Assembly: GCA_023480885.1 (NCBI GenBank) | Contig: JAMCWX010000066.1 | Span: 37,467-101,466, forward strand | Source: Chloroflexota bacterium | Lineage (GTDB): Bacteria > Chloroflexota > UBA6077 > FW602-bin22 > JACPRP01 | Length of the DNA stretch: 64,000 bases | Direction of reading: 5' to 3' | Made by a program: the position numbers and the translations under genes | Shown: positions 22,153 through 51,952 of the stretch, piece after piece | Numbering within the stretch: the first letter of the stretch is position 1 | Layout of the letters: every line of letters begins with the position of its first letter | The notes under the pieces: model-generated | Databases searched by the model: none | Told to the model about the DNA's origin: nothing | What the model saw: the letters and a program-made list of their open reading frames with translations, nothing else

Positions 22153-22161
22153 ATTGTCGTT

Positions 22162-27711: not shown

Positions 27712-27724
27712 CTTCGTGAACCTC

Positions 27725-28768: not shown

Positions 28769-28800
28769 TTCCCTTTACCTCCTCTGCTCAGCGATCAACC

Positions 28801-33657: not shown

Positions 33658-33777
33658 TTGTGCGTCGTACAATATAGGTACCGCGAGCTTACCAGAGATG
33701 GAAACTCAACAGATTACGAATGCAAGGTACGATCCATACAGTGCGCACGAAGTAGTGGAGCAAAGAGGTGAGTGACA

Positions 33778-35677: not shown

Positions 35678-35864
35678 CAACTCCCTTTTCCCCCTTATCT
35701 TCGAATAGCCTTTGAGTTCCGAAACATCGCTAGCCAAACCGATTCGGCCTTTTCCAAACACTAATGATGCAATGCAGCGTAGTCTGAGTTTGCTGTTGCT
35801 TCAGCACCTCCTTTCCGGTAAGAAGCGATGCCGATAGCCGCTCACTGGCCCAAGTACGAGCGCC

Positions 35865-37314: not shown

Positions 37315-37320
37315 GGCTAA

Positions 37321-38388: not shown

Positions 38389-38402
38389 TATCCCTCTTCC
38401 TT

Positions 38403-39272
38403 TTACACCTTAGCCTGGATCCGACGCCCGAACACCCCGGTTGGGCGAACCGCAAGCACTACCACGATGAGCACGAACGCAAAGGTCGTTCGCAGCTCGG
38501 TGGAAATGAACTCTCCCGCCAGGTTCTCGGCCACACCAATGAAAAGCCCTCCCACAATGGCACCAGGAAGGCTGCCGAAGCCACCGAGCACTGCCGCAGC
38601 GTAAGCCTTTACAAGAACGTCTGACATCATATTGGGACTCAAATAGACGAGAGGAGCAAGAAGGATTCCTGCAACCGCAGCCAAGGCGCCGCTCACTCCC
38701 CAGGTAAGTGCGAAGATCCTGCTAACGTTCACGCCCATCAACCGAGCCGCCATCCTATCTTCCGCCGTGGCCCGCATTGCCAGCCCGGCCGTCGTGTAAC
38801 GGAAGAACACGAACAGCACCGCGCTTATTATGAAACCGAAGGCGAGTATCCAGAGATGTCCCTGACCTATGACCACTCCGTTGACCGAAACAGGATCGGA
38901 GGGGAGAGGCGATGGAAACGCTTTGGTATCGCGACCCCAGATGGCTCCTGCAACACCGTGCAAGATCATATAGACACCCAAGGTAGCAATCATCAGGCTG
39001 AGCATAGAGGCATTCTTCATCGGTCTAATGGTTAGCCTATCCACCACCACCGCCAGAATCGCAGTAGTAACAATAGCCACAAGCGTTGCCAGCACGAAAG
39101 GGACTTTGAACTGGGAAATGGCCATAAGCGCTACGAAGGCCGCGACCATACCAAAGTCTCCCTGAGCGAAATTGACCACGTCCGTGTTCTTGAAGATCAG
39201 AACGAGGCCGAGGGCCGTAAGGGCGTAGAGGCTGCCGGCAGCCAATCCGCTTACCATCTGTTGAGCAATCAC
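38403..39272 (-). CDS. livH: LivH-type ABC permease
   Basis: Starting at GTG 39272 (5 nt after AGGAGG) gives IAQQMVSGLAAGSLYAL, the canonical LivH N-terminus. The track ORF extends to 39371. Confidence 0.85.
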   Translation of the reverse strand: MIAQQMVSGLAAGSLYALTALGLVLIFKNTDVVNFAQGDFGMVAAFVALMAISQFKVPFVLATLVAIVTTAILAVVVDRLTIRPMKNASMLSLMIATLGVYMILHGVAGAIWGRDTKAFPSPLPSDPVSVNGVVIGQGHLWILAFGFIISAVLFVFFRYTTAGLAMRATAEDRMAARLMGVNVSRIFALTWGVSGALAAVAGILLAPLVYLSPNMMSDVLVKAYAAAVLGGFGSLPGAIVGGLFIGVAENLAGEFISTELRTTFAFVLIVVVLAVRPTGVFGRRIQAKV

Positions 39273-39364
39273 TGGCACCTCCTGAATCAAGTTCGCCTCA
39301 AGCATCGAAAGACCACTGTTGCTGACAGGATGTCGGAGTCCGCGCAGACTCCCCAATATACTAT

Positions 39365-39468
39365 TGTACAAGCAGGTGTTATATCAGTGCATACTATATC
39401 GACACGGGTTATATCGACAAGCGTTGATGTTGCGTCAATATAGCACAGGTTTTGTGCTGTGTCAACAG
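39365..39468. repeat. copy 1 of a duplicated ~104-bp intergenic module
   Basis: About 75% identical to 39542-39644. It contains ATATCGA twice (39396-39402 and 39411-39417), plus TTGATGT, TATAGCACAGGTT and GTCAACAG. Confidence 0.8.
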
Positions 39469-39541
39469 CTTTTGTCGCTTGAGTCTAAAACGACTTGCGC
39501 CCAAAACACCAGACCAATTTCACGCGAGCTGAGAAAAGGTG

Positions 39542-39644
39542 TATACAAGTGGAGGTTGTATCATTGTATACTATATCGACGGCTGTTGTATCGACAGCAA
39601 TTGATGTCGGGCAGTATAGCACAGGTTCTCGCTGCAGTCAACAG
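39542..39644. repeat. copy 2 of the duplicated ~104-bp intergenic module
   Basis: Offset 177 bp from copy 1. ATATCGA lies at 39573-39579 and GTATCGA at 39588-39594, with the same internal landmarks. Confidence 0.8.
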
Positions 39645-39729
39645 GTGTGCTCACTTGTTATGGATCGCCTGTGTGCTGGCAGGTGCACCGTTTCATCCCT
39701 CAAGGCCGAAAATAACAATGGAAAATGTA

Positions 39730-39758
39730 TTGACATCGATTGATTTATATGCTAGTAT
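39730..39758 (+). promoter_or_regulatory. sigma70-like promoter of the methyltransferase/molybdoenzyme/arsDA operon
   Basis: TTGACA (39730-39735), 17 nt, TAGTAT (39753-39758), about 95 nt before GTG 39852. Confidence 0.5.
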
Positions 39759-39851: not shown

Positions 39852-40907
39852 GTGAAGCCAAGAGATAGGCTACTTATGGCGATCAAACATCAGCAGCCCG
39901 ACCTGGTGCCCTTGTTCATCCGCTACGTCGGCGCTGTGAGCAGCAAACTCTCCCGCATTCACGGCATCGCCGGACGCGACCTAGAAATCAAGCTTGGCAA
40001 CGACGGCGTGATCGTCCAGATCGGCATCAACGCCGAGTACAGCCATAAAGTGGTGCCCGATGGCGAGCGCTGGACTAGCGAATGGGGCGTTACCTACGAG
40101 GGTATGCGTGGCATCAGCCAGCCCGTTGACCATCCACTTAAGGAGCCAGATGTCTCGGGCTATATATGGCCCGATCCTCATAAGCCCGAGAGGATGGCCG
40201 AGATCAAACAGGCGATGGCCAGGTATCATAGCGACTACGCGGTGATGGTCGACCTCTCCTGCACCTTTCTGGAGGCAGGCTACGCGCACCTCCGAGGCAT
40301 GGAGAAGTTCATGATGGATCTTCACCTCAGTCGGGACTTCGCCTGCCAGGTGCTGGATGGCCTCAACACCTATTACACTGCCCTCGGCGTACACGCCATT
40401 GAGCAGGGAATCGACATCATTCGAATCGGCGACGACATCGCTGGACAGAATGGTATGCTCGTGCCCCCGAAGTTGTGGCGCGAACTGGTAAAGCCGCGAA
40501 TGGAATCGATGATCCACGCCTTCAGGAAAGCCAACCCAAACATCATCGTCAAATATCACTCGTGTGGCGATTTCAGCGCTATCATCCCCGATCTCATCGA
40601 CCTGGGCGTCGACTTCATCGGGACGATGCAGCCCTGCGGCCAACAGGTGGATATGGCAGCCATTAAGGCGAAATACGGCGACAAGCTGGCCTTTCTGGGC
40701 GGCCTGGACACACAGCAGCTTCTGCCAAACGGCTCGCCCGAAGAGGTGCGGGAGGCTGTGAAAGACGTCCTGCGTAGCTACGCGCCAGGCGGCGGCTACG
40801 TTTTTATGCCAGGGCACTACGTCAACTTGGACGTGCCGCTAGAAAACGTCTGGGCGCTGCTCTCGGCGGTGCACGATTACCGCAGGTATCCTTTGAACTT
40901 CGATTAG
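39852..40907 (+). CDS. UroD/MtaA-family (MT2-type) methyltransferase 1
   Basis: Uroporphyrinogen-decarboxylase-fold pattern with a Zn-type HSCG...QPCG motif and C-terminal APGGGYVFMPGH. GTG 39852 lies about 10 nt after AAGGAAGG. The track ORF starts at 39768. Confidence 0.8.
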   Translation: MKPRDRLLMAIKHQQPDLVPLFIRYVGAVSSKLSRIHGIAGRDLEIKLGNDGVIVQIGINAEYSHKVVPDGERWTSEWGVTYEGMRGISQPVDHPLKEPDVSGYIWPDPHKPERMAEIKQAMARYHSDYAVMVDLSCTFLEAGYAHLRGMEKFMMDLHLSRDFACQVLDGLNTYYTALGVHAIEQGIDIIRIGDDIAGQNGMLVPPKLWRELVKPRMESMIHAFRKANPNIIVKYHSCGDFSAIIPDLIDLGVDFIGTMQPCGQQVDMAAIKAKYGDKLAFLGGLDTQQLLPNGSPEEVREAVKDVLRSYAPGGGYVFMPGHYVNLDVPLENVWALLSAVHDYRRYPLNFD

Positions 40908-40942
40908 CCAGCTGAGGCAAGAAGAAGCTTGAGGTGTTCTTC

Positions 40943-41632
40943 ATGGAGATATCTACACAGGACGGTGAACGCTCAATGGCTGAAATAATGAAATCAGGAA
41001 CCCTGGAGAAGCTAGCGCAGGCCGTGCTAGAGGGGGCAGCGGAAGACGCCAAGAGACTTACAGAGAAAGCCCTGTCAGAGAGCTTACCCCCAAACACGGT
41101 TCTCGTCGAAGGGCTCTCGGCAGGAATGACAGTAGTGGGCGGGTTGTTCCGCCGCAACGAGATGTTCATCCCAGAGGTGCTGCTGTCAGCCCGAGCGATG
41201 CGTTTTGGTATGGAAGTGCTTCGGCCTCTACTGGCAGAGACGGGGGCCAAGCCTGTGGGCAAGGTGATCCTGGGAACGGTAGCCGGCGACCTGCACGACA
41301 TCGGCAAGGATATCGTGCACATGATGCTGGAAGGAGCCGGCTTTCAAGTGTTCAACCTGGGCATCAACGTGGAAGCTCATAAGTTCATCGAGGCCTTCCA
41401 AGAACACAAGGCACCAGTCATTGCGCTTTCCGCCCTCCTGAGCACCACTATGCCGCAGCAGAAGGCGGTAATCGAGGCATTCGAGAAGGCTGGCTTGCGC
41501 GGCGAGGTAAAGATACTGATCGGTGGGGCGCCTGTCACTCAAGAATACGCCGATAAGATAGGGGCAGATGGTTTCGCTCCTGATGCCGCTTCGGCAGTAC
41601 TGAAAGCAAAGGAACTCCTTGGAATCAGCTAA
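40943..41632 (+). CDS. corrinoid (B12-binding) protein 1
   Basis: N-terminal helical cap, then a B12-binding Rossmann domain with DxHxxG (GDLHDIGKDIV) and SALLSTT. ATG 40976 is an alternative start. Confidence 0.85.
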   Translation: MEISTQDGERSMAEIMKSGTLEKLAQAVLEGAAEDAKRLTEKALSESLPPNTVLVEGLSAGMTVVGGLFRRNEMFIPEVLLSARAMRFGMEVLRPLLAETGAKPVGKVILGTVAGDLHDIGKDIVHMMLEGAGFQVFNLGINVEAHKFIEAFQEHKAPVIALSALLSTTMPQQKAVIEAFEKAGLRGEVKILIGGAPVTQEYADKIGADGFAPDAASAVLKAKELLGIS

Positions 41633-41659
41633 TCTCCTACTTAATTGCGAGGTGTCGTT

Positions 41660-42829
41660 GTGACAAAAGCGATGACTTCACGGCAGCGCGTGCAAGTGGC
41701 GCTCGACCATCGCGAACCTGACAGGGTGCCGCTTGGCATTTGGTCGACGCTCGACGGCTACAAGAGACTACGATCCTATCTCGGTCTCCCAATCGCTGAA
41801 CAATATCCCGTCGGCTCCACTACATGGTCACGTGACGTTCCCGTCGAGTTCGACGTTATCGATAAGCTCGGCCTGGACGTCATCAGGGTCTGTGGACGAT
41901 GCCCCGGCGGCAAATCCCTGGAGAAAACTCCCGATGGCCTGTGGATCGACGAGTGGAGCGTCAAGAGAAAGCTCGTCGAGCATCCTTCGGGAACGTATCT
42001 CGAAATCGTCAATCCGCCCTTGAAGGACGCCACTGTAGATGACCTGGCGGATTATCCCTGGCCAGACCCATCAGACCCGGCAGTGTGGGAAGGGCTTGAA
42101 GAGAGAGTGAAACGCCTCTACGACGAGACCGACCTGGCCATCCTGGCTCAATTCGGCAGAGGTGGTATCTTCGAGCAGGCCAAGTACCTCCGCGGCTACG
42201 ACACCATTATGTACGATATGGCCGCAAATCCAGAATTTGTTATTGCCCTCTTCGACAAGCTGACGGAGGTCGAGATGAAGTTCAACGAGATCGGCATCGG
42301 TCTCATCGGCCAGTACATCAACATCCTTCGCCTTTCGCCCGAGGACCTGGCCACTGGCGACAGCACCTTCGTCTCGCCAAAAATGTTCGAGCGCATGCTC
42401 AGACCCTATTACAAGCGCAGCTTCTCCCTCGCCAGAAAACTCTTGAAAGAGAAGAATCCTCAGGCGAGGCTGCAGTTCCACAGCTGCGGCGCCGTTTATC
42501 CGTTGCTGAACGCACTCATCGAGGACGGAATGGAAATCTTCGATCCGTTGCAGCCGAGAGTGGCTGAAGGCTCTAGGCCTGCCAGGCTCAAGCAAGCCTT
42601 CGGAGACCGCATCGCTTTCTGGGGAGGAATTGACGTTCAGGTCACGCTTCCACGCGGCACCAAAGAGGAGATCGCCAAGGAGGTCAGGACGAGGATCGCG
42701 GAAGTGGCGCCAGGCGGAGGTTATATCCTCAGCTCCTCACACCGCATCCAACCAGATATCCCTCCTGAGAACGTCGTCGCGATGTATGAAGCAGCCAAAG
42801 AACACGGGGAATACCCGATAAAAGCATAG
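41660..42829 (+). CDS. UroD/MtaA-family methyltransferase 2
   Basis: Same fold as methyltransferase 1 (FHSCGAVYPLL, APGGGYILSSSH), but without the second Cys of the QPCG position. GTG 41660 lies 5 nt after GAGGTG. Confidence 0.8.
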   Translation: MTKAMTSRQRVQVALDHREPDRVPLGIWSTLDGYKRLRSYLGLPIAEQYPVGSTTWSRDVPVEFDVIDKLGLDVIRVCGRCPGGKSLEKTPDGLWIDEWSVKRKLVEHPSGTYLEIVNPPLKDATVDDLADYPWPDPSDPAVWEGLEERVKRLYDETDLAILAQFGRGGIFEQAKYLRGYDTIMYDMAANPEFVIALFDKLTEVEMKFNEIGIGLIGQYINILRLSPEDLATGDSTFVSPKMFERMLRPYYKRSFSLARKLLKEKNPQARLQFHSCGAVYPLLNALIEDGMEIFDPLQPRVAEGSRPARLKQAFGDRIAFWGGIDVQVTLPRGTKEEIAKEVRTRIAEVAPGGGYILSSSHRIQPDIPPENVVAMYEAAKEHGEYPIKA

Positions 42830-42844
42830 TGCGGGGAGATATGC

Positions 42845-43495
42845 ATGGAAATCTTTGAGCAAATCAGCAATGCCGTCATCGAGGGCGAGTTCGGCGAAAT
42901 CACAGACCTTGTGCAGAGTGCGCTCGATCAGGGAATCGGAGCCAACGAAGTCATCCGAGAGGGCCTGTCGAAGGGAATGACTGAGGTGGGACGCCGCTTC
43001 CGCGAAGGCGAATATTTTATGCCTGAGGTCCTGGTTTCCGCCAAGACCATGAACACCGCGCTGTCGATACTGAAACCACTTCTCGTCGGCGATACCACCC
43101 AAGAGAACGTGGGAACCTTTCTTATCGGCACCGTCAAAGGCGACGTGCACGACATTGGCAAGAATATGGTATCCATGATGATGGAAGGCGCTGGCTTTAG
43201 AGTGATCGATATTGGCGTCGACGTAAAGCCAGAGGTCTTCGTGAAAGAGATAACGGAAAAGCAGCCCGATGTCGTTGGACTTTCAGCCTTGCTCTCCACG
43301 ACGATGATCTCGCAGAAAGAGACCATCGAGGCGCTCAAAGAGGCGGGCGTACGAGATAGAGTGATCGTTCTTGTTGGAGGAGCTCCTGTCGACCAAAACT
43401 GGGCCAACACTATTGGGGCAGACGGATATGCTCCCAATGCCAGCGTAGCGGTTGAGAAGGCGAAGGAGCTACTGCAGCGGCGACCCCACAGCTAG
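42845..43495 (+). CDS. corrinoid (B12-binding) protein 2
   Basis: DxHxxG as GDVHDIGKNMV, SALLSTTM and GGAPV. Paralogous to corrinoid protein 1. Confidence 0.85.
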   Translation: MEIFEQISNAVIEGEFGEITDLVQSALDQGIGANEVIREGLSKGMTEVGRRFREGEYFMPEVLVSAKTMNTALSILKPLLVGDTTQENVGTFLIGTVKGDVHDIGKNMVSMMMEGAGFRVIDIGVDVKPEVFVKEITEKQPDVVGLSALLSTTMISQKETIEALKEAGVRDRVIVLVGGAPVDQNWANTIGADGYAPNASVAVEKAKELLQRRPHS

Positions 43496-43521
43496 CTCGA
43501 TCTAGATGAAGGGAGAGACAC

Positions 43522-44070
43522 ATGACCCGCTTAGCGCTAGTAATAGATTTGAACAAGTGCATTCTATGCCACGCTTGCACCGTATCCTGCAAGATTCATC
43601 ACGACCTGCCGCTCGGGCAGTTCTGGAACGAGGTCTTCACTGTCGGGCCAAGCGGAGAGTTCCCGCACACGTCTCTGTATGGATTCCCCAAAGCATGTAT
43701 GCAATGCGACAAGCCCGCCTGTGTTTCCGTTTGTCCAGCAAGGGCCACGGAAAAGGACAAGGAAACTGGGGTGGTCAAAATCTACGAGGACAAGTGCGTT
43801 GGTTGCCGCTCCTGCATCGTGGCCTGCCCTTACGGTGCGCGTGCCTTCGACGAGACTAAAGGAACGACGTTCAAGTGCGAACTCTGCCCAGAGAGGCGCG
43901 AGCAAGGCAAGCAACCCATCTGCGTCGAGACCTGTGTCGGAGGAGCGCGAGTCTTTGGCGACATCGACGACCCAAACAGCGAAGCCTACAAGATCGTTCA
44001 CGAAAAACACGCGGTCAGGTATCTGGAGCATCTGGGCACAGAGCCCTGCACCAGCTACGTGCCAGCCTAG
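43522..44070 (+). CDS. four-cluster 4Fe-4S subunit (DmsB/PsrB-like), no signal peptide
   Basis: LVIDLNKCILCHACTVSCK, CMQCDKPACVSVCP, CVGCRSCIVACP and CELC...CVETC. Confidence 0.9.
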   Translation: MTRLALVIDLNKCILCHACTVSCKIHHDLPLGQFWNEVFTVGPSGEFPHTSLYGFPKACMQCDKPACVSVCPARATEKDKETGVVKIYEDKCVGCRSCIVACPYGARAFDETKGTTFKCELCPERREQGKQPICVETCVGGARVFGDIDDPNSEAYKIVHEKHAVRYLEHLGTEPCTSYVPA

Positions 44071-44120
44071 CTTCAGGACAACGTTCTCTGATTGGCCAGA
44101 GACGAAACAGGGGATGAAAC

Positions 44121-44981
44121 ATGAAAAGACGAAGAGCCAACACGTGGGACATTAGGATCGCCTCTTATCTTTTCCTGGCGGGCGTTGGCGCCGGAGCATT
44201 CGGGTCGCTGGCACTGCTCGATTACCTCGAAGGGGGCAAGCTGCACCTTCCCACCAGCATCACTGCCCTGCTCTCCCTCCTGCTCATAGGCATCGGAACC
44301 TTGCTGCTAGTATCGGACCTGGGAAAGCCACTGCGCTTCTGGCGAGTGCTGTTGAACCCGATGAGTTCTATGCTTTCGGTTGGCGCCTGGATACTGATCT
44401 TGTTCGCCCTCACGATGCTGGGCTACCTGGGCTTCGGGGGACCAGTGTTCAGCCTTGGTGGTGTGGTATTCGCGATAGCAACAGCAGGATACACAGGAAT
44501 CCTGCTGGGAGTAATAAAGGCTAGGCCATTCTGGAATAGTCCCGCGCTTCCACTGCTGTTCGTGACATCGGCCTTTTCCACTGGCATAGCGGTTGTGACG
44601 GTGCTCGCCTCAGCGCTGGTGATCTACGGCCTGGACGCGCAGAGCTCGCACCTGCTCTCGCAGGTCGATCTATGTCTGATCGTCGCCGAGCTAGCAATCA
44701 TTGGTTTGTACTTGACCATCATGAACAATTCCGCCGCGCCTGCGGCCAGGTCGGTTGAGATGTTGCTGAGAGGGAAGCAAGCCAACACATTCTGGGGCGG
44801 GCTGATCTTCGCCGGTCTGGTGGTACCGCTCGTTCTCGCCCTCGCCAGTTCCGAAGGGGTAACGAACCTGCTCTCCTCGATTCTGGTGCTGATAGGAGGG
44901 TTCTCTCTCAGATACACATTCCTGGCGGCAGGAACTCGTGCACTCCTGCCAGGGGAGCCCGCCGAGGCAAGTTACCTGTGA
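44121..44981 (+). CDS. NrfD/DmsC-type membrane anchor subunit
   Basis: 286-aa, about 8-TM protein with IASYLFLAGVGAGAF and SDLGKPLRFWRVL motifs. Confidence 0.8.
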   Translation: MKRRRANTWDIRIASYLFLAGVGAGAFGSLALLDYLEGGKLHLPTSITALLSLLLIGIGTLLLVSDLGKPLRFWRVLLNPMSSMLSVGAWILILFALTMLGYLGFGGPVFSLGGVVFAIATAGYTGILLGVIKARPFWNSPALPLLFVTSAFSTGIAVVTVLASALVIYGLDAQSSHLLSQVDLCLIVAELAIIGLYLTIMNNSAAPAARSVEMLLRGKQANTFWGGLIFAGLVVPLVLALASSEGVTNLLSSILVLIGGFSLRYTFLAAGTRALLPGEPAEASYL

Positions 44982-45006
44982 CGTGGTGGATAGAAGGGAG
45001 GCCTTT

Positions 45007-47220
45007 ATGATCGTAGCGACTGGGAACGAAACCCAAGCAAGCAGCATAACCTCTGCTCAATTCAATACGAATACGTCGCAGACGCGCGTTTACATAGAGG
45101 GTGACGAGAAGAAGGGCGGCTACATCGCCAGCCATTGCCTGCAATGCGTATCGAACTGCGGCCTCCGAGCTTTCGTTAAGGATGGGAAAGTACGTTACCT
45201 CGAAGGGAACCCCCTCGATCCTAACAGCAGGGGCCGAATGTGCGCCAAAGGGCAGGCTGGTGTCCAGCAGATTTACGATCCTGATCGCGTGAAGAATCCC
45301 CTGGAAAGGGTTGGTGAGAGGGGAAGCGGCAAGTGGCGTGACATCTCATGGGACGAAGCCATGCAGAAGATATCCAGCAGGCTGCGGAGGCTGCGAGACA
45401 GCGGACATCCTGAACAGTTCGTGTTCTACAGCGGCCGCAACATGCAGGCCGGTTACACTACTCGCTTCACCAATGCCTTCGGCAGTCCCAACCATTTCAA
45501 CCACGACAGCCTTTGCGCATCAGGACGCCAGATGGCCACGTTACTCACTTACGGAGACACCTGGCCTCAGATGGACATCGAGAACGCCCGCTACGTTCTG
45601 CTGTTCGGCTTCAGCGCCTTCGACGCGGGGATTTGCTTCGTTCCTGCCGCCCAGAGGCTGGTAAACGCTTTGAGCAAAGGTGCGAAGCTCGTCGTCGTGG
45701 ACCCCAGGCTGAGCAAGACGGCCGCCAAGGCCAGCGAATGGATTTCCATCGCGCCAGGGACCGATGCAGCCCTGGCTATGGGCATAATGAACGTCATAGT
45801 CTCCGAGGGCCTCTACGACCGCGAATTCGTGGAACATTGGACCGTCGGGTTCGATGATTTCGTCGAGAAGGAGTTGAAGCGCTTCACACCAGAGTACGCA
45901 TCGAGCATTTGCCGCGTGCCAGCAGAGAAAATCGGGGAGCTAGCGTGGGACTTCGCCACAACGAGGCCGGCCGTTGCGGATGCGATGCGAGGAGTGTCAG
46001 CTCATACGAATGGCACCGTGTCCATACGCGCAGTGATGGCGCTAAACGTCTTGCTTGGAAATATCGATGACATCGGTGGAATGAACCTGGACTTCGGCTG
46101 GTGGAACATCGGCCTGGGCGCTGTGGATCCCGTCCCACCGGCTCCCAAAGAGACGCGAAGGCTGGACCGTCTGGGCACTTCGCAGTACCCGCTGGCCGCC
46201 GTGCCTATCCAGCAGCAAATCCTCCCCTCGATCGCCGAGCGAGATCCGTACCCGGCCGACACCGTGATGCTGTATCACTCGAGTCCAGCCTACGCCATGC
46301 CTGACCCGAAGAAACAGATGAACATACTCAAGAATCCCGACAAAGTTCCATTCATCATCTCTGTCGATCCCTTCATGGGAGAGTCGACGACGTTCGCCGA
46401 TATCGTCCTGCCAGAAGGCACCTACCTGGAGAGATATGATGCTGTTTCCTGGCCATACAGCCTGCAATTTACCCCATACGTTTTCCTTCGCAAACCCGTG
46501 GTTCCCCCGCAACTCGAATCGAGAATGGTGAAAGACATCTTGAGAGAGCTAGCTCATCGCATAGGCGGGGGCATGGAACAATACTTCGCCGACGACGCCG
46601 TAGCTTATCATCGAAAAGAGATCGAGGGAATCACAAACGGGCCGTCGTGGGATGAGATAGTTAAGAATGGCGTGTGGGTGGCCCCTGCGAAGCGCGAAAC
46701 CCAAAGGTTCAGAAAGAACGGCTTCTTTACCCCCTCAGGCAAGATCGAGCTCTACAGCAAGCGGATGGATGATGCTGGATTCCCCCCTTTCCCAACCTAT
46801 GTTCCGGTAGCTACCCATGACGCCGAACGCCGGCAGCAATACCCATTCTGCTTGATAACCTACAAGGTGGCGATGCACAACCAGTCGCGCACAGCTAACG
46901 TGCCGTTCCTGGTCGAGGTTATGGACCGTAATTATGCCGAGATAAACCCGAAGTCGGCCGCGAGCCTTGGAATTCGCGACGGCGACGAAGTGTACGTCGA
47001 ATCCGAAATCGGACGCATCGAAGGGGTTGCACGCTTGACCAATGAGATTAGACAGGATACTATAGCGATATCCCATCACTTTGGCCATTGGGAGTACGGT
47101 AGGGTTGCGAAGGGCCGAGGCATTAGCCCGAATCCAATCGTGGCCTGCAACGACGATGGCATCGGCGCCCCGGCGGCCTTCAACAGCACCCTCGTCAGGG
47201 TCTATAAGAAGTTAAAGTAG
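45007..47220 (+). CDS. molybdopterin oxidoreductase catalytic subunit without a Tat signal (substrate unknown)
   Basis: ATG 45007 lies 5 nt after GAAGGGAGG. It has a polar N-terminus, Fe-S motif C-x2-C-x3-C-x27-C (CLQCVSNC...CAKG), candidate Mo-ligand Cys in NHDSLCASG, and 737 aa. Confidence 0.9.
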   Translation: MIVATGNETQASSITSAQFNTNTSQTRVYIEGDEKKGGYIASHCLQCVSNCGLRAFVKDGKVRYLEGNPLDPNSRGRMCAKGQAGVQQIYDPDRVKNPLERVGERGSGKWRDISWDEAMQKISSRLRRLRDSGHPEQFVFYSGRNMQAGYTTRFTNAFGSPNHFNHDSLCASGRQMATLLTYGDTWPQMDIENARYVLLFGFSAFDAGICFVPAAQRLVNALSKGAKLVVVDPRLSKTAAKASEWISIAPGTDAALAMGIMNVIVSEGLYDREFVEHWTVGFDDFVEKELKRFTPEYASSICRVPAEKIGELAWDFATTRPAVADAMRGVSAHTNGTVSIRAVMALNVLLGNIDDIGGMNLDFGWWNIGLGAVDPVPPAPKETRRLDRLGTSQYPLAAVPIQQQILPSIAERDPYPADTVMLYHSSPAYAMPDPKKQMNILKNPDKVPFIISVDPFMGESTTFADIVLPEGTYLERYDAVSWPYSLQFTPYVFLRKPVVPPQLESRMVKDILRELAHRIGGGMEQYFADDAVAYHRKEIEGITNGPSWDEIVKNGVWVAPAKRETQRFRKNGFFTPSGKIELYSKRMDDAGFPPFPTYVPVATHDAERRQQYPFCLITYKVAMHNQSRTANVPFLVEVMDRNYAEINPKSAASLGIRDGDEVYVESEIGRIEGVARLTNEIRQDTIAISHHFGHWEYGRVAKGRGISPNPIVACNDDGIGAPAAFNSTLVRVYKKLK

Positions 47221-47259
47221 CCATAAAAGCACAGCAAAGCCAAGAGGAGACAGCCAGTA

Positions 47260-48132
47260 ATGTTGCGAACCACTATATTCAGCGAGAAGCGAGAAGTGAC
47301 GATAGCACGAGACCTGCCGACCATCCTAATCGGCGAGAGGATCAACCCAACTGGCAAGAGGAAGCTTGCCACAGCGCTTATGGAAGGAAACTGGGATTAT
47401 GTGAAAGAGATGGCCATCAAGCAGGTTGAGGCTGGAGCCCACGTGCTGGACGTCAACGTTGGCGTCGGCGGCATCGACGAAGCGGAGTATCTGGTAGCTG
47501 CCATCAAAGCCGTGTCTGAGGCAGTCGACGTGCCTCTCTGCATTGACTCTTCGGATCCAAAGGCCCTGGCCGCTGCCCTCGGGTCTTATAAGGGGAAGGC
47601 GCTGGTGAATTCTGTCACAGGAGAGGAAGGCAGCCTCGAAACAGTGCTTCCCCTGGTAAAGCAGTACGGAGCAGCCGTTATCGCGCTATGCATGGACGAG
47701 CATGGATGTGCCGTGGATGTCGAGGGCCGCACAGCTGTCGCTAGAAAGATTATCGACAGGGCGGACCGACTGGGCATCCCTCGTGAAGATATCATAGTAG
47801 ACTGCCTTACCATGACAGTTGGAGCCGATTCCAAGGCTGCGCTGGTGACCCTCGAAGCAACAAGCCGTGTTGTCGCGGAGTTTGACGTGAACATAACGTC
47901 GGGCGCCAGCAATATCTCCCACGGGCTTCCGGTGCGCGAGGTGATAAACGCCGCTTTCCTGGCGATGATGATTGCTGCCGGTTTGACGGCGCCCATCGTC
48001 GACCCCACTGCCCCTGGGATAACTCAAGCGATTCTTGCAGCCGACTTAGTGATGGGCCGTGATGACTACGCCGCTCGCTATATTCGCCATTATCGCAAAA
48101 TGATGAAGGCGGCGGCTGCTCGCGCGAATTGA
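47260..48132 (+). CDS. pterin-binding methyltransferase (methyl-THF:corrinoid, MeTr/MtrH-like)
   Basis: Pterin-binding TIM-barrel pattern (ILIGERINPTG, HVLDVNVG, PLCIDSS, LVNSVTGEE, SNISHGLP). Confidence 0.8.
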   Translation: MLRTTIFSEKREVTIARDLPTILIGERINPTGKRKLATALMEGNWDYVKEMAIKQVEAGAHVLDVNVGVGGIDEAEYLVAAIKAVSEAVDVPLCIDSSDPKALAAALGSYKGKALVNSVTGEEGSLETVLPLVKQYGAAVIALCMDEHGCAVDVEGRTAVARKIIDRADRLGIPREDIIVDCLTMTVGADSKAALVTLEATSRVVAEFDVNITSGASNISHGLPVREVINAAFLAMMIAAGLTAPIVDPTAPGITQAILAADLVMGRDDYAARYIRHYRKMMKAAAARAN

Positions 48133-48155
48133 GGTAATTTGTCAGGGAGGACAAC

Positions 48156-48506
48156 ATGACGAAGGACGAAGTCAAGGTTGAGGTATTCGAGAAAGTGTCG
48201 TGCTGTGGCGGTGGCGCCTGCGGCCCCAATGCCGATCCTGAGGCAGTCGCCTTCACGGAAGCAACTTGGAGCCTTCGAAGAAGGGGCATCCCCGTTCATC
48301 TCTACTCTTTGCCCGCAGATGTCAAAGTCTTCGCCGAACACCCGCTGATCAAGAGGCTGATTTCCGAGAGCAAAGGTCCGCTGCTGCTTCCGATCACGAT
48401 AGTGAACAACATTGTCGTCAAAGTCGGCTCCAATCCTACTCTCGCAGAACTCGAAGACGCCCTCGGAATGAACAATCAGCCGGTCCAGGAAGGAACTTCC
48501 GCATGA
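48156..48506 (+). CDS. arsD: arsenic metallochaperone ArsD
   Basis: CC-x4-C site (SCCGGGACGP) and overall collinearity with ArsD (FTEATWSLRRRGIPVHLYSL...LLLPITIVNN). Confidence 0.85.
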   Translation: MTKDEVKVEVFEKVSCCGGGACGPNADPEAVAFTEATWSLRRRGIPVHLYSLPADVKVFAEHPLIKRLISESKGPLLLPITIVNNIVVKVGSNPTLAELEDALGMNNQPVQEGTSA

Positions 48507-49390
48507 GCACAAACTTTGCCTTTGTTTCAGGTAAAGGCGGAGTTGGCAAGACCTCTATTGCCTGTGCCATAGCTTTGTATCACGCCGAACACGGCGAGTA
48601 CACGCTCATTGTCACGACCGACCCCGCTCCCAACCTTTCCGACGTCTTCGAGCAGCCCATAGGGCACAACATCACCGCGATCAACAGCGTCGAGCGTCTC
48701 TCCGCGATTGAGATCGACCCAGACATCACCGCCGAAGAGTATCGGGAGCGCTATCTGGCCCCGCTGCGCGAGATTCTTCCACCAGAGATGGTGGCAGTAG
48801 TTGCCGAGCAACTGGCCTCTCCCTGCACCTCGGAAGTAGCCTCCTTTGACAAGTTTGCCGATTTCTTCGAGGCGTCCGGGGTCGACTTTATCGTTTTCGA
48901 CACGGCCCCTACTGGCCATACAGTTCGCCTCCTGGAACTGCCCGCAGATTGGACGCGGCATATTGATCGCCTCACTGAAGGTGGACATTCGTGCGCTGGG
49001 GCAGTTGCTAATATTAAGGAGTCAAGGGCCAAATATGATCGAGCAGTCGCGGCGTTGAGGAACCCCGAGCAGACGTCGTTCATATTCGTCGTGCAGCCGG
49101 AGGCGACGCCCATTGCTGAGACAGAGCGCACGCTCTCACAACTGGAGCGGGTAGGAGTGACGGCGAAAGAGTTGATTATCAACGGCATCATACCATCGGA
49201 ACAGTGCGAAGTACCCTTCTTCCGGAAGCGGCGCGAAATGCAAGACCACTACATCGAAGAGATACACCGTCGCATCCCGCTGCCAAGCAAGTCCCTTTAC
49301 TTTTTCGATGAAGAGGTCAAGGGTCTGGAAATGATACGTAAGGTTGGAAGGACACTTAATCAGAATGGACAGCTTAGTACGTCCCAATAG
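48503..49390 (+). CDS. arsA: arsenite-stimulated ATPase ArsA, N-terminal (A1) half as a separate ORF
   Basis: The ATG overlaps the arsD stop (ATGA). It has SGKGGVGKTS, DTAPTGHT, and the A1 As-binding Cys equivalents (SPCTSEV, GHSCAGA). It ends at TAG 49388-49390. Confidence 0.85.
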   Translation: MSTNFAFVSGKGGVGKTSIACAIALYHAEHGEYTLIVTTDPAPNLSDVFEQPIGHNITAINSVERLSAIEIDPDITAEEYRERYLAPLREILPPEMVAVVAEQLASPCTSEVASFDKFADFFEASGVDFIVFDTAPTGHTVRLLELPADWTRHIDRLTEGGHSCAGAVANIKESRAKYDRAVAALRNPEQTSFIFVVQPEATPIAETERTLSQLERVGVTAKELIINGIIPSEQCEVPFFRKRREMQDHYIEEIHRRIPLPSKSLYFFDEEVKGLEMIRKVGRTLNQNGQLSTSQ

Positions 49391-50324
49391 GAAAGACGGC
49401 GTGGTGGATATCATCAAGCCAGGGCCTAAGGGTGATAGGATGGTATTCTTCGCTGGCAAGGGTGGTGTCGGCAAAACTTCGACGGCGTGTGCGACTGCCG
49501 TCTGGCTGTCCCGCGCCGGGTACCGCACTCTCCTCTTGACTACCGATCCTGCTTCCCACCTCAGCGACGTATTCGAGCAGCCGGTTACAGATAAGGTGCG
49601 GGAACTCGGTGGCTTGCCTGGATTATTCGCGGCGCGGATTGATCCGAAGCGCGCGGCGGAAGACTACAAGCAGCGCATACTTGACGACATGAAGGGTAAA
49701 CACTCCGCGGATGTGCTGGCCGTCGTCGAAGAGGAACTCGACGCACCGTGCACCGAGGAAATGGCGACCTTCGACCTCTTCGTCTCTTATGCCAGTTCCA
49801 CCGAGTACGACGTGATGGTCTTCGACACCGCGCCAACGGGACACACCCTCAGGCTGCTCCAGCTTCCCATCGAATGGAGCAAGCAGATTCAAGTCAAGGT
49901 ATACGCGTCGGTAGACAGTCAGCAAGCAGGGGAGACGACTAAGGCGAAGTTTGGTCAGGTGATAGATCGCATGCGAGATGTTAGACGCACGACGTTTTCC
50001 TTTATAATGTATCCTGAGGCCACTCCCGTCGTCGAAGCGTATCGGGCGGCTCGTGACATCGAGACGTTAGGTATCAGCGTAGGATTCGTCATAGCAAATC
50101 AAGTGCTTCCCGAAGAGCATTGCACCAACGCCTATTTCAAGAAGCGCTTCGCGATGCAGCAAAAGTACCTTCAGGAAATGAAAGACCGCTTCGGCGTGCC
50201 GATTCTGCAAATGCCCCTGCTGGAGCACGACGTCAGAGGTATTAGCACCTTGATCAGAATAGGAGACGTGCTCTTCGGCCAACCAGTCAGCCCACACTCA
50301 AGGGCGACATCAGCACCATTGTGA
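49365..50324 (+). CDS. arsA: ArsA C-terminal (A2) half as a separate ORF
   Basis: AGKGGVGKTS, DTAPTGHT and the A2 Cys equivalent (APCTEEM). It is in a different frame from A1. ATG 49365 overlaps A1 by 26 nt. ATG 49440 (after AAGGGTGA) is an alternative start. Confidence 0.8.
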   Translation: MDSLVRPNRKDGVVDIIKPGPKGDRMVFFAGKGGVGKTSTACATAVWLSRAGYRTLLLTTDPASHLSDVFEQPVTDKVRELGGLPGLFAARIDPKRAAEDYKQRILDDMKGKHSADVLAVVEEELDAPCTEEMATFDLFVSYASSTEYDVMVFDTAPTGHTLRLLQLPIEWSKQIQVKVYASVDSQQAGETTKAKFGQVIDRMRDVRRTTFSFIMYPEATPVVEAYRAARDIETLGISVGFVIANQVLPEEHCTNAYFKKRFAMQQKYLQEMKDRFGVPILQMPLLEHDVRGISTLIRIGDVLFGQPVSPHSRATSAPL

Positions 50325-50462
50325 CGTGGACAATACCTGCCAGGTAGCGAGAGGCCGATTAGCTATAAGATCAAGTGATCGTGCCTGAATCTCGTTCAAC
50401 TGAAACTGAGTAGTTTCCAAGACTGCGCTGGCACAATCCGCACTTTCCCGCAAAATTCCTTA

Positions 50463-50491
50463 TTGAATACTGCTTCGTCTTCTTGTATACT
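50463..50491 (+). promoter_or_regulatory. promoter candidate for the multihaem cytochrome gene
   Basis: TTGAAT (50463-50468), 17 nt, TATACT (50486-50491). Confidence 0.45.
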
Positions 50492-50569
50492 GTGAACCGC
50501 TAGGCAACCCTCGATTGTATACCATTATGGGTGAAACCTACCTTCAAATCGAGACCAATGGAGGTCAAA

Positions 50570-51952
50570 ATGGATGACCACTCGGTGTCTTCGGTTGACC
50601 AGCGGCGCATAATCCTCATTTGCGTTGCGCTTGCGATCGCACTGCTTATCATCGTGGCCTTCCTCGGTGGTTGCACCGACCAGAAGGCAACGCCCACGTC
50701 CAAGCCAGCAGCAGAGGTCGCTCCTGCCAGCGCAACGCGCGTTGCCCAACCGACAGCAGCTCAGGGCGCGGCTTCGAAGACAGGACAGGCCGAAACCGCG
50801 AAGCCCCAGGCCACAGATGCGTCCAAGCCAGCCGCTACCCCACAGGCTAAGGAAACGCCAGCAGCAGTCGTTCAGGAGAAAGGGGCCGGGCCAAACATTC
50901 CCCACTCCCCCAAAGGACGTGACGACTGTCTAGCCTGCCACTCCAGACTGGTGGTGTGGCCCGTGCCTGCAAGCCACGAAGGCCGCGGCAATGAGACATG
51001 CCAGGCTTGCCACAAGCCTTTGGCGGGCGGCCCACCAAAGATCGCCCATACACTGGACGGGAAGTCGGACTGTGTAGCGTGCCACGGCGAAGGCAAGCTA
51101 GTCAAGCTGCCGCAGAGCCACGCGAAAAGGACGTCTTCCAACGTGTGCGTTGTTTGCCACCAGCAGACTACCACGCCCACTACTATCGCGCATACGTTAG
51201 AAGGCAAAACCAACTGCACGCAGTGCCACGGCGATGGCAAGATAGTGGCGTTGCCAGCGAGCCACGCCGGCAGAACCGAGCAGATGTGCCAGGTCTGCCA
51301 CACGCAGACGACGACACCCACAAAGATCGCGCACACTCTGGAGGGCAAGACGAATTGCACCGGTTGTCACGGCGACGGCAAACTGGTGAAGCTGCCGCAG
51401 AGCCACGCCGGCAGAACCGAGCAGATGTGCACGCTCTGTCACACGCAAACGACTCAACCCAACACGATCGCACATACGTTGGAAGGAATGACAAACTGCA
51501 CATCGTGCCACGCCGATGGCAAGCTAGTGCCGTTGCCAGCAAGCCACGCCGGCAGAACGGAGCAGATGTGCCAGATTTGTCACGCGCAGACGATGCAGCC
51601 GCCCACCATCGCACACACGTTGGAAGGCAAAGTCAACTGCACGCAGTGCCACGGCACTGGGAAGCTAGTGGCGCTACCGGCTTCTCACGCCAAGAGGACG
51701 GAGCAAATGTGCGCCGTGTGTCACACGAAGACTATGGATCCGCCAAGGGCACCGCACACCACATCTGACAAGCCTTCGTGTATCGCGTGCCACGACGGCA
51801 AGAAGGTGAAGGCGGCGCCAGCGAATACCCACCAGGGTAGGACCGACCAGATGTGCGCTATCTGCCACGCGCCTGTCTCAGGAGGCGTTCCAAAGATACC
51901 GCACACGCTAGAGGGCCGCTCTGACTGCACGATGTGCCACACGAAGCAGTAG
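50570..51952 (+). CDS. lipoprotein-anchored multihaem c-type cytochrome (15 CxxCH) built of tandem modules
   Basis: ATG 50570 lies 5 nt after GGAGG. It has a signal/TM segment ending in lipobox FLGGC, an Ala/Pro/Thr/Gln/Lys-rich linker of about 75 aa, then 15 CxxCH motifs. Confidence 0.85.
   Translation: MDDHSVSSVDQRRIILICVALAIALLIIVAFLGGCTDQKATPTSKPAAEVAPASATRVAQPTAAQGAASKTGQAETAKPQATDASKPAATPQAKETPAAVVQEKGAGPNIPHSPKGRDDCLACHSRLVVWPVPASHEGRGNETCQACHKPLAGGPPKIAHTLDGKSDCVACHGEGKLVKLPQSHAKRTSSNVCVVCHQQTTTPTTIAHTLEGKTNCTQCHGDGKIVALPASHAGRTEQMCQVCHTQTTTPTKIAHTLEGKTNCTGCHGDGKLVKLPQSHAGRTEQMCTLCHTQTTQPNTIAHTLEGMTNCTSCHADGKLVPLPASHAGRTEQMCQICHAQTMQPPTIAHTLEGKVNCTQCHGTGKLVALPASHAKRTEQMCAVCHTKTMDPPRAPHTTSDKPSCIACHDGKKVKAAPANTHQGRTDQMCAICHAPVSGGVPKIPHTLEGRSDCTMCHTKQ
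50897..51949 (+). repeat. intragenic tandem repeat, 141-147-bp period (47-49-aa di-haem module, 7.5 copies)
   Basis: Module starts at 50897, 51041, 51185, 51326, 51467, 51608, 51749 and 51896. Consensus: IAHTLEGKTNCTxCHGDGKLVxLPxSHAGRTEQMCxxCHTQTxxPxx. Confidence 0.9.

Follow-up and report, generated by a model that had tools for sequence, protein, structure and literature searches.

A bacterial operon joining corrinoid methyltransferases, a molybdoenzyme and arsDA as a candidate for oxygen-independent methyl transfer from arsenic

An operon combining methyl transfer, a molybdoenzyme and arsDA

Methylated arsenic species control the toxicity and mobility of arsenic, and dimethylarsenate (DMAs) causes straighthead disease of rice. 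Papers published between 2023 and 2026 ascribe the anaerobic demethylation of DMAs to methylotrophic methanogens with bacterial help, describe the mechanism as unclear and flag the bacterial role for study. Anaerobic demethylation of methylarsenicals has been observed in soils and enrichments, papers up to 2026 name no enzyme or gene for it, and current surveys use mcrA or mtaB, or generic methanogen methyltransferase genes, as a proxy for the anaerobic route (PMC10579292; PMC12478174; bioRxiv 10.64898/2026.08.27.747368). Among described corrinoid enzymes of the UroD fold, the sulfur and selenium methyltransferases have a His-Cys-Cys metal site, and the O-demethylases swap Cys ligands for carboxylates (PMC10418091). 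Here we analyzed a 64,000-nucleotide stretch of the genome of an uncultured Chloroflexota bacterium from mine waste (assembly GCA_023480885.1, contig JAMCWX010000066.1, positions 37,467 to 101,466 of the forward strand), referred to from here on as the window, and focused on an operon in which two methyltransferases of the UroD type and their corrinoid proteins are joined to a membrane-anchored molybdenum (Mo) oxidoreductase and to arsDA. The literature that we searched contains no account in which methyltransferases of the UroD type and their corrinoid proteins are linked to a Mo oxidoreductase or to arsDA, which agrees with what a preliminary description of this DNA, made from its letters, had stated. 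We propose, with a probability of roughly 0.45, that the operon and a neighboring importer would together serve the import and corrinoid-dependent demethylation of a methylated oxo-arsenical, a Mo-dependent redox step, and the capture of As(III) by ArsDA. This type of operon is, in our opinion, the best gene-level candidate so far for the removal (or addition) of methyl groups on arsenic without O2.

The operon consists of 11 open reading frames (ORFs) that run in the same direction on the + strand (39852-50324), preceded by a promoter-like site:

39730-39758, + strand: promoter-like site TTGACA-17-TAGTAT upstream of the operon (consensus scan, 10 of 12 positions, TG extension; a consensus match only)
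39852-40907, + strand: MT-A, UroD/MtaA-fold corrinoid methyltransferase of subfamily A (URO-D, PF01208, 112 bits)
40934-41632, + strand: CP-A, corrinoid protein (B12-binding, PF02310, and B12-binding_2, PF02607; GDLHDIG)
41645-42829, + strand: MT-B, UroD/MtaA-fold corrinoid methyltransferase of subfamily B (URO-D, 77.5 bits)
42845-43495, + strand: CP-B, corrinoid protein (B12-binding and B12-binding_2; GDVHDIG)
43522-44070, + strand: FeS, four-cluster electron-transfer subunit (Fer4_11, 89 bits; NrfC/TtrB/DsrO-like NCBIfam matches; no signal peptide)
44121-44981, + strand: NrfD-type integral membrane, quinol-interacting subunit (NrfD, 133 bits)
45007-47220, + strand: Mo, Mo/W-bisPGD catalytic subunit of type alpha (Molybdop_Fe4S4, Molybdopterin and Molydop_binding domains)
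47260-48132, + strand: Pter, pterin-binding methyl-corrinoid:tetrahydrofolate methyltransferase, MeTr/AcsE-like (NF005719, 297 bits, cut-off 259)
48156-48506, + strand: ArsD, As(III) metallochaperone (PF06953, 72 bits, cut-off 27)
48503-49390, + strand: ArsA1, N-terminal-type half of a split ArsA ATPase (PF02374, 248 bits)
49365-50324, + strand: ArsA2, C-terminal-type half of the split ArsA (PF02374, 246 bits; start at 49365 or 49440)

With the starts used in the preliminary description, the gene junctions measure, from 5' to 3', +26, +12, +15, +26, +50, +25, +39, +23, -4, and -26 nucleotides (nt), and no terminator-like site was found on the + strand between the operon genes or after 50324. 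Alignment with orthologues backs the MT-A start at 39852, agrees with the Mo start at 45007, and indicates that the true start of MT-B is probably 41672 rather than 41645. The tight spacing of the genes is the basis on which we consider the operon to be probably co-transcribed. Further, contigs from two other studies, corresponding to positions 44891-51232 (run X4) and 46783-48604 (X5), bridge the Mo-Pter-arsD-arsA junctions, and because these contigs were assembled independently, the adjacency of arsDA to the other modules is real DNA and not an assembly artefact. The operon holds neither a RACo/RamA activase nor an efflux permease (ArsB/Acr3); RACo genes lie on other contigs of the host (C14, beside ACS, and a partial copy on C53), and efflux permease genes are also present elsewhere in the host genome, which is 88.7% complete and comprises 3.1 Mb. 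An Rfam scan of 20000-53000 detected no riboswitch and no other RNA family. Overall, the ORF coordinates, profile searches and residue alignments bear out what had previously been read from the letters, namely eleven same-strand ORFs whose junctions lie between -26 and +50 nt, every assignment to a family and every motif, the promoter (located as a consensus match), and an operon devoid of a RamA-type activase and efflux permease; the three modules are indeed joined, and their co-transcription is probable. The host DNA stretch is present in metagenomes of mine tailings, mine drainage and sediment from three studies. A SpoIID-domain gene was considered as a sign that the host is a spore former and dropped; no Spo0A scored above cut-off. 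RpoB assigns the host to Chloroflexota. We also note that a gene for a multihaem cytochrome c of 473 amino acids (50531-51952) lies 206 nt 3' of arsA2 behind a promoter-like site of its own (50463-50491). Its product has a membrane helix at the N terminus, a linker of low complexity, and a unit with two CxxCH motifs that is repeated about six times almost unchanged.

The two methyltransferases are only distantly related to each other (just 26-29% identity). MT-A is 61-64% identical to its orthologues in six other clusters, with H-S-C-G-D and MPxH invariant, and CP-A is 56-59% identical to its orthologues. In the MT-B alignment, H279-S-C281-G and H366 are invariant, and the AF2 model of MT-B (pLDDT 92.8) has Methanosarcina mazei MtaA (4ay7) as its top fold match; the fold search was used because a sequence search of the PDB with MT-B returned, as its sole match, a spurious designed repeat protein. 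An atlas search for look-alikes of MT-B returned generic URO-D clusters only. In both enzymes, His-x-Cys is invariant and the third metal-ligand position, which in MtaA-type enzymes is taken by the second Cys and which was placed by motif and fold homology and not from a solved site, is occupied by an invariant His (MPxH in MT-A and SSSH in MT-B). The predicted His-Cys-His site is a distinct, uncharacterised variant.

The class of the Mo subunit was set by curated hidden Markov model (HMM) scores and PDB matches. It scores 448 bits on the PhsA model (cut-off 694) and 255 bits on the ArrA model (cut-off 1600), and its nearest solved relative is PsrA of Thermus thermophilus (2vpw, 313 bits over the full length), in which the Mo ligand Cys173 is matched by a Cys and Arg332 by an Arg of the query. 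The Mo subunits of the sister clusters described below also score best on the thiosulfate reductase model PhsA (441-460 bits, below 694) and lie far under the ArrA cut-off, and no ArrA above cut-off was detected anywhere in the host genome. The FS0 cysteines and the Mo-ligand Cys are kept in 10 of 10 cluster-linked Mo subunits. None of these 10 has a twin-arginine (Tat) motif, compared with 96 of the 116 next homologues, and the FeS subunits of the clusters (orthologues 55-56% identical to that of the window) likewise begin without signal peptides. Because the Tat signal of most relatives is missing, the Mo enzyme is predicted to face the cytoplasm. Close homologues of the Mo subunit number only three (53-55% identity), the next being at 40% or below. 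A scan of a genome collection yielded only distant relatives (26-35% identity) in unrelated contexts, which were not used, and the best Mo match in the whole genomes of 40 relatives of the host was 39% identical, so that no orthologous cluster exists among the relatives searched.

Two further loci with related molybdoenzymes were observed. The window itself has a second PsrABC-like operon on the - strand (23230-29529), with FeS (28801-29529), NrfD (27725-28768) and a Tat-bearing Mo subunit (25324-27711), a TorD-like chaperone (24378-25259) and a polyferredoxin (23230-24390), adjoining a NarL-type two-component pair and a PhnD-like binding protein (30133-33243). At L034 (2273-10880), the nearest Tat-bearing relative of the Mo subunit (40% identity) stands behind a half-size ATPase of the ArsA family and is followed by genes for a multihaem cytochrome, cytochrome b, a Rieske protein and cytochrome c; no methyltransferases were found there.

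The ars genes of the operon look functional, as judged from conserved residues. The CC-x4-C motif of ArsD (the Cys12/Cys13/Cys18 triad) aligns with the ArsD structures 3ktb and 3mwh, although ArsD scores 67.8 bits on the NCBIfam equivalog model, under its cut-off of 90. ArsA1 keeps the equivalents of Cys113 and Cys172 of E. coli ArsA, ArsA2 keeps that of Cys422, and DTAPTGH is present in both; the cut-off of the full-length ArsA model TIGR04291 (650) is out of reach for one half (277 bits). The arsD stop and the arsA1 start overlap as ATGA. The operon encodes the single ArsD match and the only three-cysteine ArsA found in the host genome. Host contig C69 carries genes for an ArsP_1-family permease, a thioredoxin, an MFS transporter, ArsR and Acr3, with no arsA and no arsD. 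The window also has an Acr3-like gene (21019-21816) with an in-frame gap at profile positions 116-214, which scores 278.6 bits against a cut-off of 282.8 and is flanked by two divergently oriented ArsR-family genes (21019-22482 for the group); it may represent a decayed or variant arsenite pump. The other strong ArsA-family gene of the host genome encodes an ArsA-HSP20 fusion (4968-6149), which is 28-30% identical to ArsA1 and ArsA2, lies beside a GH57 branching-enzyme gene in a glycogen context, and is a non-ars member of the family.

Recurrence of the core and of its arsenic linkage

The recurrence of the gene order in other genomes was checked with cluster contexts drawn from public contigs, a metagenome scan and whole genomes; the sampling of lineages is small and partly non-independent, and several contigs stop near the cluster. 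The combination does recur: MT-A, MT-B, one or two corrinoid proteins, FeS and Mo occur together in about 11 diverged lineages, with orthologues 46-69% identical. The gene orders, in which MTA, MTB and CP denote the two methyltransferases and a corrinoid protein, are as follows:

L027: PadR - permease - AraC - MTA - CP - MIP - Pter - MTB - CP - FeS - NrfD - Mo - CobW
L029: MFS - MTA - CP - MIP - Pter - MTB - CP - FeS - NrfD - Mo - ArsA - ArsR - ArsD
L031: as L029, minus MIP and the ars genes
L130: MTA - CP - MTB - CP - FeS - NrfD - Mo - MIP - Pter
L035/L127: BTAD - MTA - MTB - CP - Mo - FeS - AmiS/UreI - cytochrome b-like - Pter - ArsR - ArsD - ArsA - ArsC
L132: begins as L035; the contig stops early
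L038 and L039: rearranged cores, no ars genes
L139: Mo - FeS - cytochrome b-like - PadR - LIV ABC - CP - MTB - CP - Pter - MTA - ArsD
L128: Mo - MTB - CP - CobW - LIV ABC - Acr3

When the 10 lineages with enough flanking sequence to be assessed were compared, bona fide ars genes were found to abut the core in five, in the arrangements arsD-arsA1-arsA2 (window), arsA-arsR-arsD (L029), arsR-arsD-arsA-arsC (L035/L127), arsD (L139), and acr3 (L128). In the host genome, ArsD, three-cysteine ArsA and Acr3 genes make up three loci in 3.1 Mb, from which we estimate that a random 20-kb stretch would have about a 2% chance of holding one; an enrichment of ars genes by chance is unlikely even with only three independent associations. 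An ArsP_1-family permease of L027 was not counted as an arsenic gene, as the top-scoring models for it are those of SaoE or a Cu/Zn efflux protein.

The 3' part of the operon appears to have a history of its own. The window Pter is 53-55% identical to the Pter of L035, L127 and L139, which have a Mo subunit of the other type (beta, see below), compared with 37-39% to Pter of clusters with type alpha, and in both the window and L035 it is placed behind Mo and next to the ars genes, directly before arsD in the window. ArsA1 and ArsA2 are 53 and 59% identical to the N and C halves of L035 ArsA, respectively, and 34-43% identical to L029 ArsA. The Pter-arsD-arsA block of the window is therefore homologous and syntenic with Pter-arsR-arsD-arsA-arsC of L035 despite the different Mo module; the two 3' blocks share ancestry, and the operon is of mosaic origin. 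ArsA and ArsD of L029 are just 30-43% identical to those of the window, which implies that the L029 ars genes were acquired separately. A third architecture is found at L141 (1284-9330) and L142 (1-12699), in the order ferredoxin - Rieske - S-methyltransferase-family protein (PF02574) - Mo - FeS - ArsC-type reductase. Its Mo subunit (P0101) belongs to the beta clade and is Tat-less, its ArsC-type reductase has a CTGNSARS motif and a Cys pair, and an MFS transporter, an ArsR-like gene with C-terminal CC pairs, a URO-D gene and a LIV importer are located nearby.

We noted that two different Mo modules serve the same methyl-transfer set. Type alpha (window, L027, L029, L031 and L130) has the NrfD anchor and type beta (L035, L127, L132, L038 and L039) an anchor resembling the cytochrome b of NarI/HdrE, which is typical of cytoplasm-facing complexes. 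The two types are 34-36% identical, no nearer to each other than to the other Psr paralogue of the window. In a tree of 128 sequences, the five alpha subunits form a clade (support 1.0) with a mostly Tat-bearing sister group and beta lies elsewhere, the two meeting only at the root of a sample that was drawn around alpha. We infer that the Mo complex is a catalytically competent, cytoplasm-facing, quinone-linked oxidoreductase that was recruited at least twice to the same methyl-transfer set. As two non-sister Psr-like clades serve orthologous methyltransferase sets, all 10 subunits are Tat-less and the beta anchor is of the type described, the pathway would need a redox step in the cytoplasm.

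Homologues of MT-A (43-44% identity) and MT-B (52-54%) also occur on soil contigs in a longer cluster with no Mo and no ars genes, a type that recurs in about 15 soil contigs and is exemplified by L045:

L045, 719-19413: MetF - Pter - MTA - CP - RACo - CobW - GntR - MTB - CP - FTHFS - formiminotransferase - FolB - cyclohydrolase - acetyl-CoA synthetase

The soil clusters thus form a complete set for the oxidation of methyl-tetrahydrofolate (methyl-THF), i.e. a methyl-to-THF-to-formate context, which favours the demethylating direction for the family. They also show that the Mo enzyme is an extra component, added where the substrate or the conditions call for a redox reaction. BLAST matches to the ArsC seed at the soil loci L045 and L059 were not counted; the annotated L045 frames are without an LMWPc domain. 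MT-B belongs to a graded family of homologues, in which relatives at 48% identity or below occur as simple CP-MTB pairs. No MT-B orthologue was found in 400 other genomes sampled from the host phylum, and in the orders of three other carriers orthologues were found in 1 of 4, 1 of 2, and 2 of 201 genomes. We consider the MT-A/MT-B/corrinoid/Mo core, as delineated by these comparisons, to be a conserved, rare and patchily distributed module, and we propose that the pathway is horizontally mobile.

Upstream of the operon, the window carries an importer, a duplicated control region and a regulator gene:

34373-39371, - strand: LIV/HAAT-type ABC importer, five genes, divergent from the operon (Pfam Peripla_BP_6, ABC_tran twice, BPD_transp_2 twice)
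34373-35761, - strand: solute-binding protein (SBP) of the importer
35865-36551 and 36538-37314, - strand: ATPases of the importer
37321-38388 and 38403-39371, - strand: permeases of the importer
39367-39657, no strand assigned: tandem-duplicated control region of about 115 nt (copies at 39367-39481 and 39544-39657; period 177 nt; repeat families D1-D3)
33772-34227, + strand: ArsR/SmtB-family regulator with an ELCVCEL box (EELCVCELVE), at the far end of the importer operon (Pfam HTH_5, 57 bits)

The window SBP is 53-68% identical to those adjoining L027, L128, L139 and L142 (53% for the third architecture), and the permeases are 48-55% identical; an orthologous LIV-type importer accompanies the core in five lineages, and we regard it as the probable substrate uptake system. 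Other clusters have MFS, MIP or AmiS/UreI proteins in its place. Taken together, the transporters would suit the uptake of a small solute, probably uncharged or zwitterionic. The known substrates of importers of the LIV/HAAT type are amino acids, urea, amides and aromatic acids. The copies of the control region are 75-94% identical in blocks, and each has a strong - strand promoter-like site (39465-39437 and 39641-39613) that faces the importer genes; TATCGAC-like words recur in the duplicated region, which may be an operator array. The ELCVCEL box is shared with the ArsR inside cluster L029, and the window ArsR is a candidate regulator of the neighboring operons. We further note that the MIP genes are split or frameshifted in all three clusters that have them (L027 5191-5850, L029 3762-4332 and L130 7272-7822), which may be due to errors in the assemblies or to selection against a channel that lets arsenite through.

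Proposed pathway and alternatives

We think it likely that an imported methylated compound gives up its methyl groups via two corrinoid couples to THF and that this compound or its intermediate is also the target of the Mo enzyme in the cytoplasm, which is linked to quinone. With less certainty as to the identity of the compound, a methylated oxo-arsenical is preferred because it best explains the ars genes. The substrate would be a small methylated oxo-compound, most likely dimethylarsinate, methylarsonate or trimethylarsine oxide, with an antimony analogue as a possibility. MT-A with CP-A and MT-B with CP-B would each shift one methyl group from arsenic to corrinoid Co(I), and Pter would hand the methyl groups to THF and thereby to the Wood-Ljungdahl and one-carbon metabolism of the host, which has FTHFS and two ACS genes. 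On chemical grounds, the Co(I) nucleophile is expected to take a methyl cation from As(V) and leave As(III), such that dimethylarsinate would yield methylarsonous acid, which would need a two-electron oxidation before the second methyl group could leave; the second transfer would then yield arsenite for ArsD-ArsA. The Mo enzyme, connected with the quinone pool through NrfD, would perform the two-electron As(V)/As(III) step of such a stepwise (reverse Challenger) demethylation, either preparing the substrate or re-oxidising or reducing the intermediate between the two methyl transfers; alternatively, it may reduce an oxide or thio form at entry. ArsD would catch the As(III) product and pass it to the split ArsA, which would drive an Acr3 pump encoded elsewhere. 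The order of steps suggested previously, in which the substrate is reduced to As(III) and then stripped of two methyl groups, does not balance chemically if the corrinoid cycles between Co(I) and CH3-Co(III), and since loss of a methyl cation is expected from As(V), leaving As(III), it is more likely that the methyl transfers have the Mo enzyme step between or around them. The demethylating direction is favoured by the MetF, FTHFS, cyclohydrolase and RACo context of the soil homologues, by the FolD and cyclohydrolase genes near L027, and by FTHFS and ACS of the host. Somewhat more tentatively, we suggest that bacteria may own a dedicated, mobile and O2-independent pathway for demethylating arsenicals, in which methyl groups pass through corrinoid to THF, a Mo enzyme changes the valence between transfers, and arsenite passes to ArsD-ArsA.

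Several observations weigh against an arsenical as the substrate. First, half of the assessable lineages have no ars genes; none are in view in L031, L038 and L039, L027 and L130 carry broken MIP genes only, and the soil homologues are without ars genes. Further, the associations that do exist are not fully independent, as the window and L035 share one Pter-ars block. Second, the Mo subunits are not Arr/Arx-like and are nearest, by sequence, to polysulfide and thiosulfate reductases, and the oxidation of a trivalent intermediate by a low-potential quinone would be uphill. Third, the importer family is not known for arsenic oxyanions, and environmental methylarsenic is usually low for a catabolic substrate. 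The predicted His-Cys-His metal site neither backs nor excludes arsenic. Finally, the sequences show gene content, motifs, conservation, signals of a cytoplasmic topology and the recurrent ars linkage; from these, we inferred which substrate is used, which way the methyl groups flow, what the Mo enzyme does and in which direction, and that the genes are co-transcribed. The arsenic link made in the preliminary description therefore fared in two ways: the recurrent ars genes in 5 of 10 lineages and the ELCVCEL-type ArsR beside the importer operon speak for it, and the lack of arsDA in half of the conserved copies, which had been named beforehand as a finding that would tell against it, speaks against it. 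The link is also backed by the separate acquisition of ars genes in L029, by the 3' block common to the window and L035, by the ArsC-type reductase and ArsR-like gene of the third architecture, and by the location in the operon of the only ArsD and the only three-cysteine ArsA found in the host; the mine-related metagenomes with the host DNA fit it as well. The catalytic subunit, when set against arsenic-enzyme references by HMM scores and PDB matches, turned out to be Psr/Phs-like and not Arr/Arx-like, and predicted to face the cytoplasm. The earlier account also did not mention that a LIV-type importer is conserved, that Mo subunits of two types exist, that the 3' block is of mosaic origin, or that soil homologues occur without Mo.

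The alternative that survives best, which we nevertheless consider unlikely, is an organosulfur or organoselenium pathway, in which the Mo enzyme would reduce dimethyl sulfoxide (DMSO), a methyl di- or polysulfide or a selenium analogue, MT-A and MT-B would then strip dimethyl sulfide to methanethiol and sulfide with the methyl groups passing to corrinoid and THF, and the ars genes would be mere neighbors in metal-rich habitats. The affinity of the Mo subunits for thiosulfate and polysulfide reductase models and for PsrA 2vpw fits such a pathway, as do the Mo-less soil clusters, which suit a substrate with no redox need, the Sox genes near L039, and transporters (AmiS/UreI, MIP and AmiC-like SBPs) that suit small neutral solutes such as DMSO; it would also account for the half of the lineages with no ars genes. 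The known methyl-sulfur and methyl-selenium transferases, MtsA and Mlp/Sdm, have the UroD fold, but their third zinc ligand is Cys, whereas His is predicted here (PMC10418091). Moreover, a sulfide product needs neither chaperone nor pump, and both the presence of ArsD, ArsA, ArsR, ArsC or Acr3 beside the core in 5 of 10 lineages, in at least three arrangements, and the fact that the Pter-arsD-arsA block was kept when the Mo module was exchanged would be left unexplained.

We regard as rather improbable that the methyl groups come from a different kind of compound, for instance a methoxylated aromatic acid or an N-methyl amide, urea or N-oxide, on which (or on the demethylated molecule) the Mo enzyme would perform a hydroxyl transfer or an N-oxide or other reduction. 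The ars genes would then be neighbors by chance, or because they are regulated together in an arsenic island. In favour of this reading, amino acids, amides, urea and aromatic acids are the solutes for which LIV-type SBPs and AmiS/UreI channels are known, and GntR-, AraC-, PadR- and BTAD-type regulators stand beside several clusters. A UroD-fold methyltransferase I with a corrinoid protein and a pterin methyltransferase II is the architecture of bacterial O-demethylases, but these enzymes usually have carboxylates in place of the Cys zinc ligands, and His-x-Cys is invariant here (PMC10418091). A quinone-linked membrane anchor would be unexpected for a transhydroxylase, and the recurrent ars genes would again be left without explanation.

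We also think it improbable, and rank it after the preceding alternative, that the same proteins run in reverse as a corrinoid-dependent methylation of arsenic, i.e. a Challenger pathway free of S-adenosylmethionine (SAM). Methyl groups would then flow from methyl-THF through Pter to the corrinoids, MT-A and MT-B would methylate As(III) and subsequently methylarsenite (MAs(III)) to pentavalent products, the Mo enzyme would reduce each product with quinol in an exergonic and possibly energy-conserving step, ArsD would supply As(III), and trivalent methylarsenicals would exit as toxins or volatiles. Oxidative methylation by methyl-Co(III) alternating with two-electron reduction appears chemically natural and would need exactly two methyltransferases and one reductase, quinol-driven reduction at a cytoplasm-facing enzyme with a NarI- or NrfD-type anchor is the usual direction for the family, and ArsD is an As(III)-binding chaperone. 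However, a high-affinity importer for an organic-type solute is conserved in five lineages, whereas As(III) needs none; the homologous soil clusters look catabolic (MetF, FTHFS and RACo); ArsA and Acr3 extrude inorganic As(III) and would drain the substrate; and no arsP-type exporter is conserved across the clusters.

Electron-transfer-only Mo relatives (QrcB/ActB) have lost the Mo-ligand and FS0 cysteines and cofactor-binding features. That the Mo/FeS/membrane complex is a corrinoid activator, which would take over from the ATP-dependent RACo by re-reducing inactive Co(II) corrinoids with electrons of low potential, drawn from the quinone pool at the expense of the membrane potential, and could be combined with any substrate, is very improbable, because the Mo-ligand Cys, FS0 cysteines and cofactor domains are kept in 10 of 10 subunits and the host has a RACo gene elsewhere in its genome, even though clusters with Mo are without RACo, the Mo-less soil clusters have it in a complementary fashion, and two unrelated Mo modules can serve the same methyltransferase set.

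The locus provides a concrete, conserved bacterial gene set that ties B12- and folate-dependent methyl transfer and a redox enzyme to arsenite-handling genes, and it makes the question of anaerobic demethylation testable with a handful of soluble proteins. If demethylation of arsenicals is indeed its function, the set would fill in the enzymes that are missing from anaerobic arsenic demethylation and extend B12 chemistry to the bond between a metalloid and carbon, and surveys would gain a marker gene. Should the substrate prove to be something else, the operon would still couple corrinoid methyl transfer to a cytoplasm-facing molybdoenzyme of the Psr family in a way that has not been described, for which the long-postulated corrinoid route for the breakdown of dimethyl sulfide and DMSO in bacteria would be the obvious alternative.

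Comparison with known systems

With respect to methyl transfer, the operon shares with the bacterial corrinoid demethylases (the Mtv, Odm and Vdm O-demethylases) UroD-fold methyltransferases, small corrinoid proteins with DxHxxG and a MeTr-like THF methyltransferase. It differs from them in that it always pairs two distant methyltransferase subfamilies, lacks the RACE activator that they have, and has a predicted His-Cys-His site; moreover, ars genes, an ABC importer and a Mo enzyme anchored in the membrane go together with it. The methylthiol:CoM methyltransferases of methanogens (MtsA/MtsB) and the type-1 mlp (sdm) clusters of methyl-sulfur and methyl-selenium metabolism (Kountz and Balskus) likewise have several MtaA-like UroD-fold proteins beside a corrinoid protein (PMC10418091). 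The mlp clusters, however, have RACE, no THF methyltransferase and a His-Cys-Cys site, whereas the operon has no RACE, a THF methyltransferase and His as the third ligand and, unlike the mlp clusters, carries a Mo enzyme and ars genes; the comparison with Mlp1-3 follows their published description.

With respect to the redox enzyme, the operon resembles PsrABC/PhsABC (2vpw) in its Mo-bisPGD subunit with FS0 and a Cys ligand, its four-cluster FeS subunit and its NrfD anchor. It differs in that the Mo subunit has no Tat signal, scores under the PhsA cut-off and is encoded inside a methyl-transfer operon, and in that sister clusters carry another Psr-like clade with the NarI/HdrE-like anchor instead. 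ArrAB and ArxAB belong to the same Mo-bisPGD superfamily and also have an FeS partner subunit, but the Mo subunit of the operon matches ArrA (6cz7) only in part and is Tat-less, whereas Arr and Arx are Tat-exported.

With respect to arsenic, the operon shares with arsRDABC-type operons, including those with a split ArsA1/ArsA2 as reported for Alkaliphilus metalliredigens, the three-Cys ArsD, the overlap of arsD and arsA, the three-Cys ArsA and DTAPTGH. It differs from them in that it has no ArsR, ArsB/Acr3 or ArsC, the pumps being encoded elsewhere, and in that arsD lies 23 nt 3' of the Pter gene. If an arsenical is the substrate, the net chemistry would be like that of ArsM (SAM-dependent methylation), ArsI (an O2-dependent C-As lyase) and ArsH (MAs(III) oxidation), in that methyl groups on arsenic and its valence are changed, but the operon has no homologues of these enzymes, its cofactors would be corrinoid, folate and molybdopterin, and it would be independent of O2. 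In contrast to the methanogen-linked demethylation of DMAs, the proposed pathway would be bacterial.

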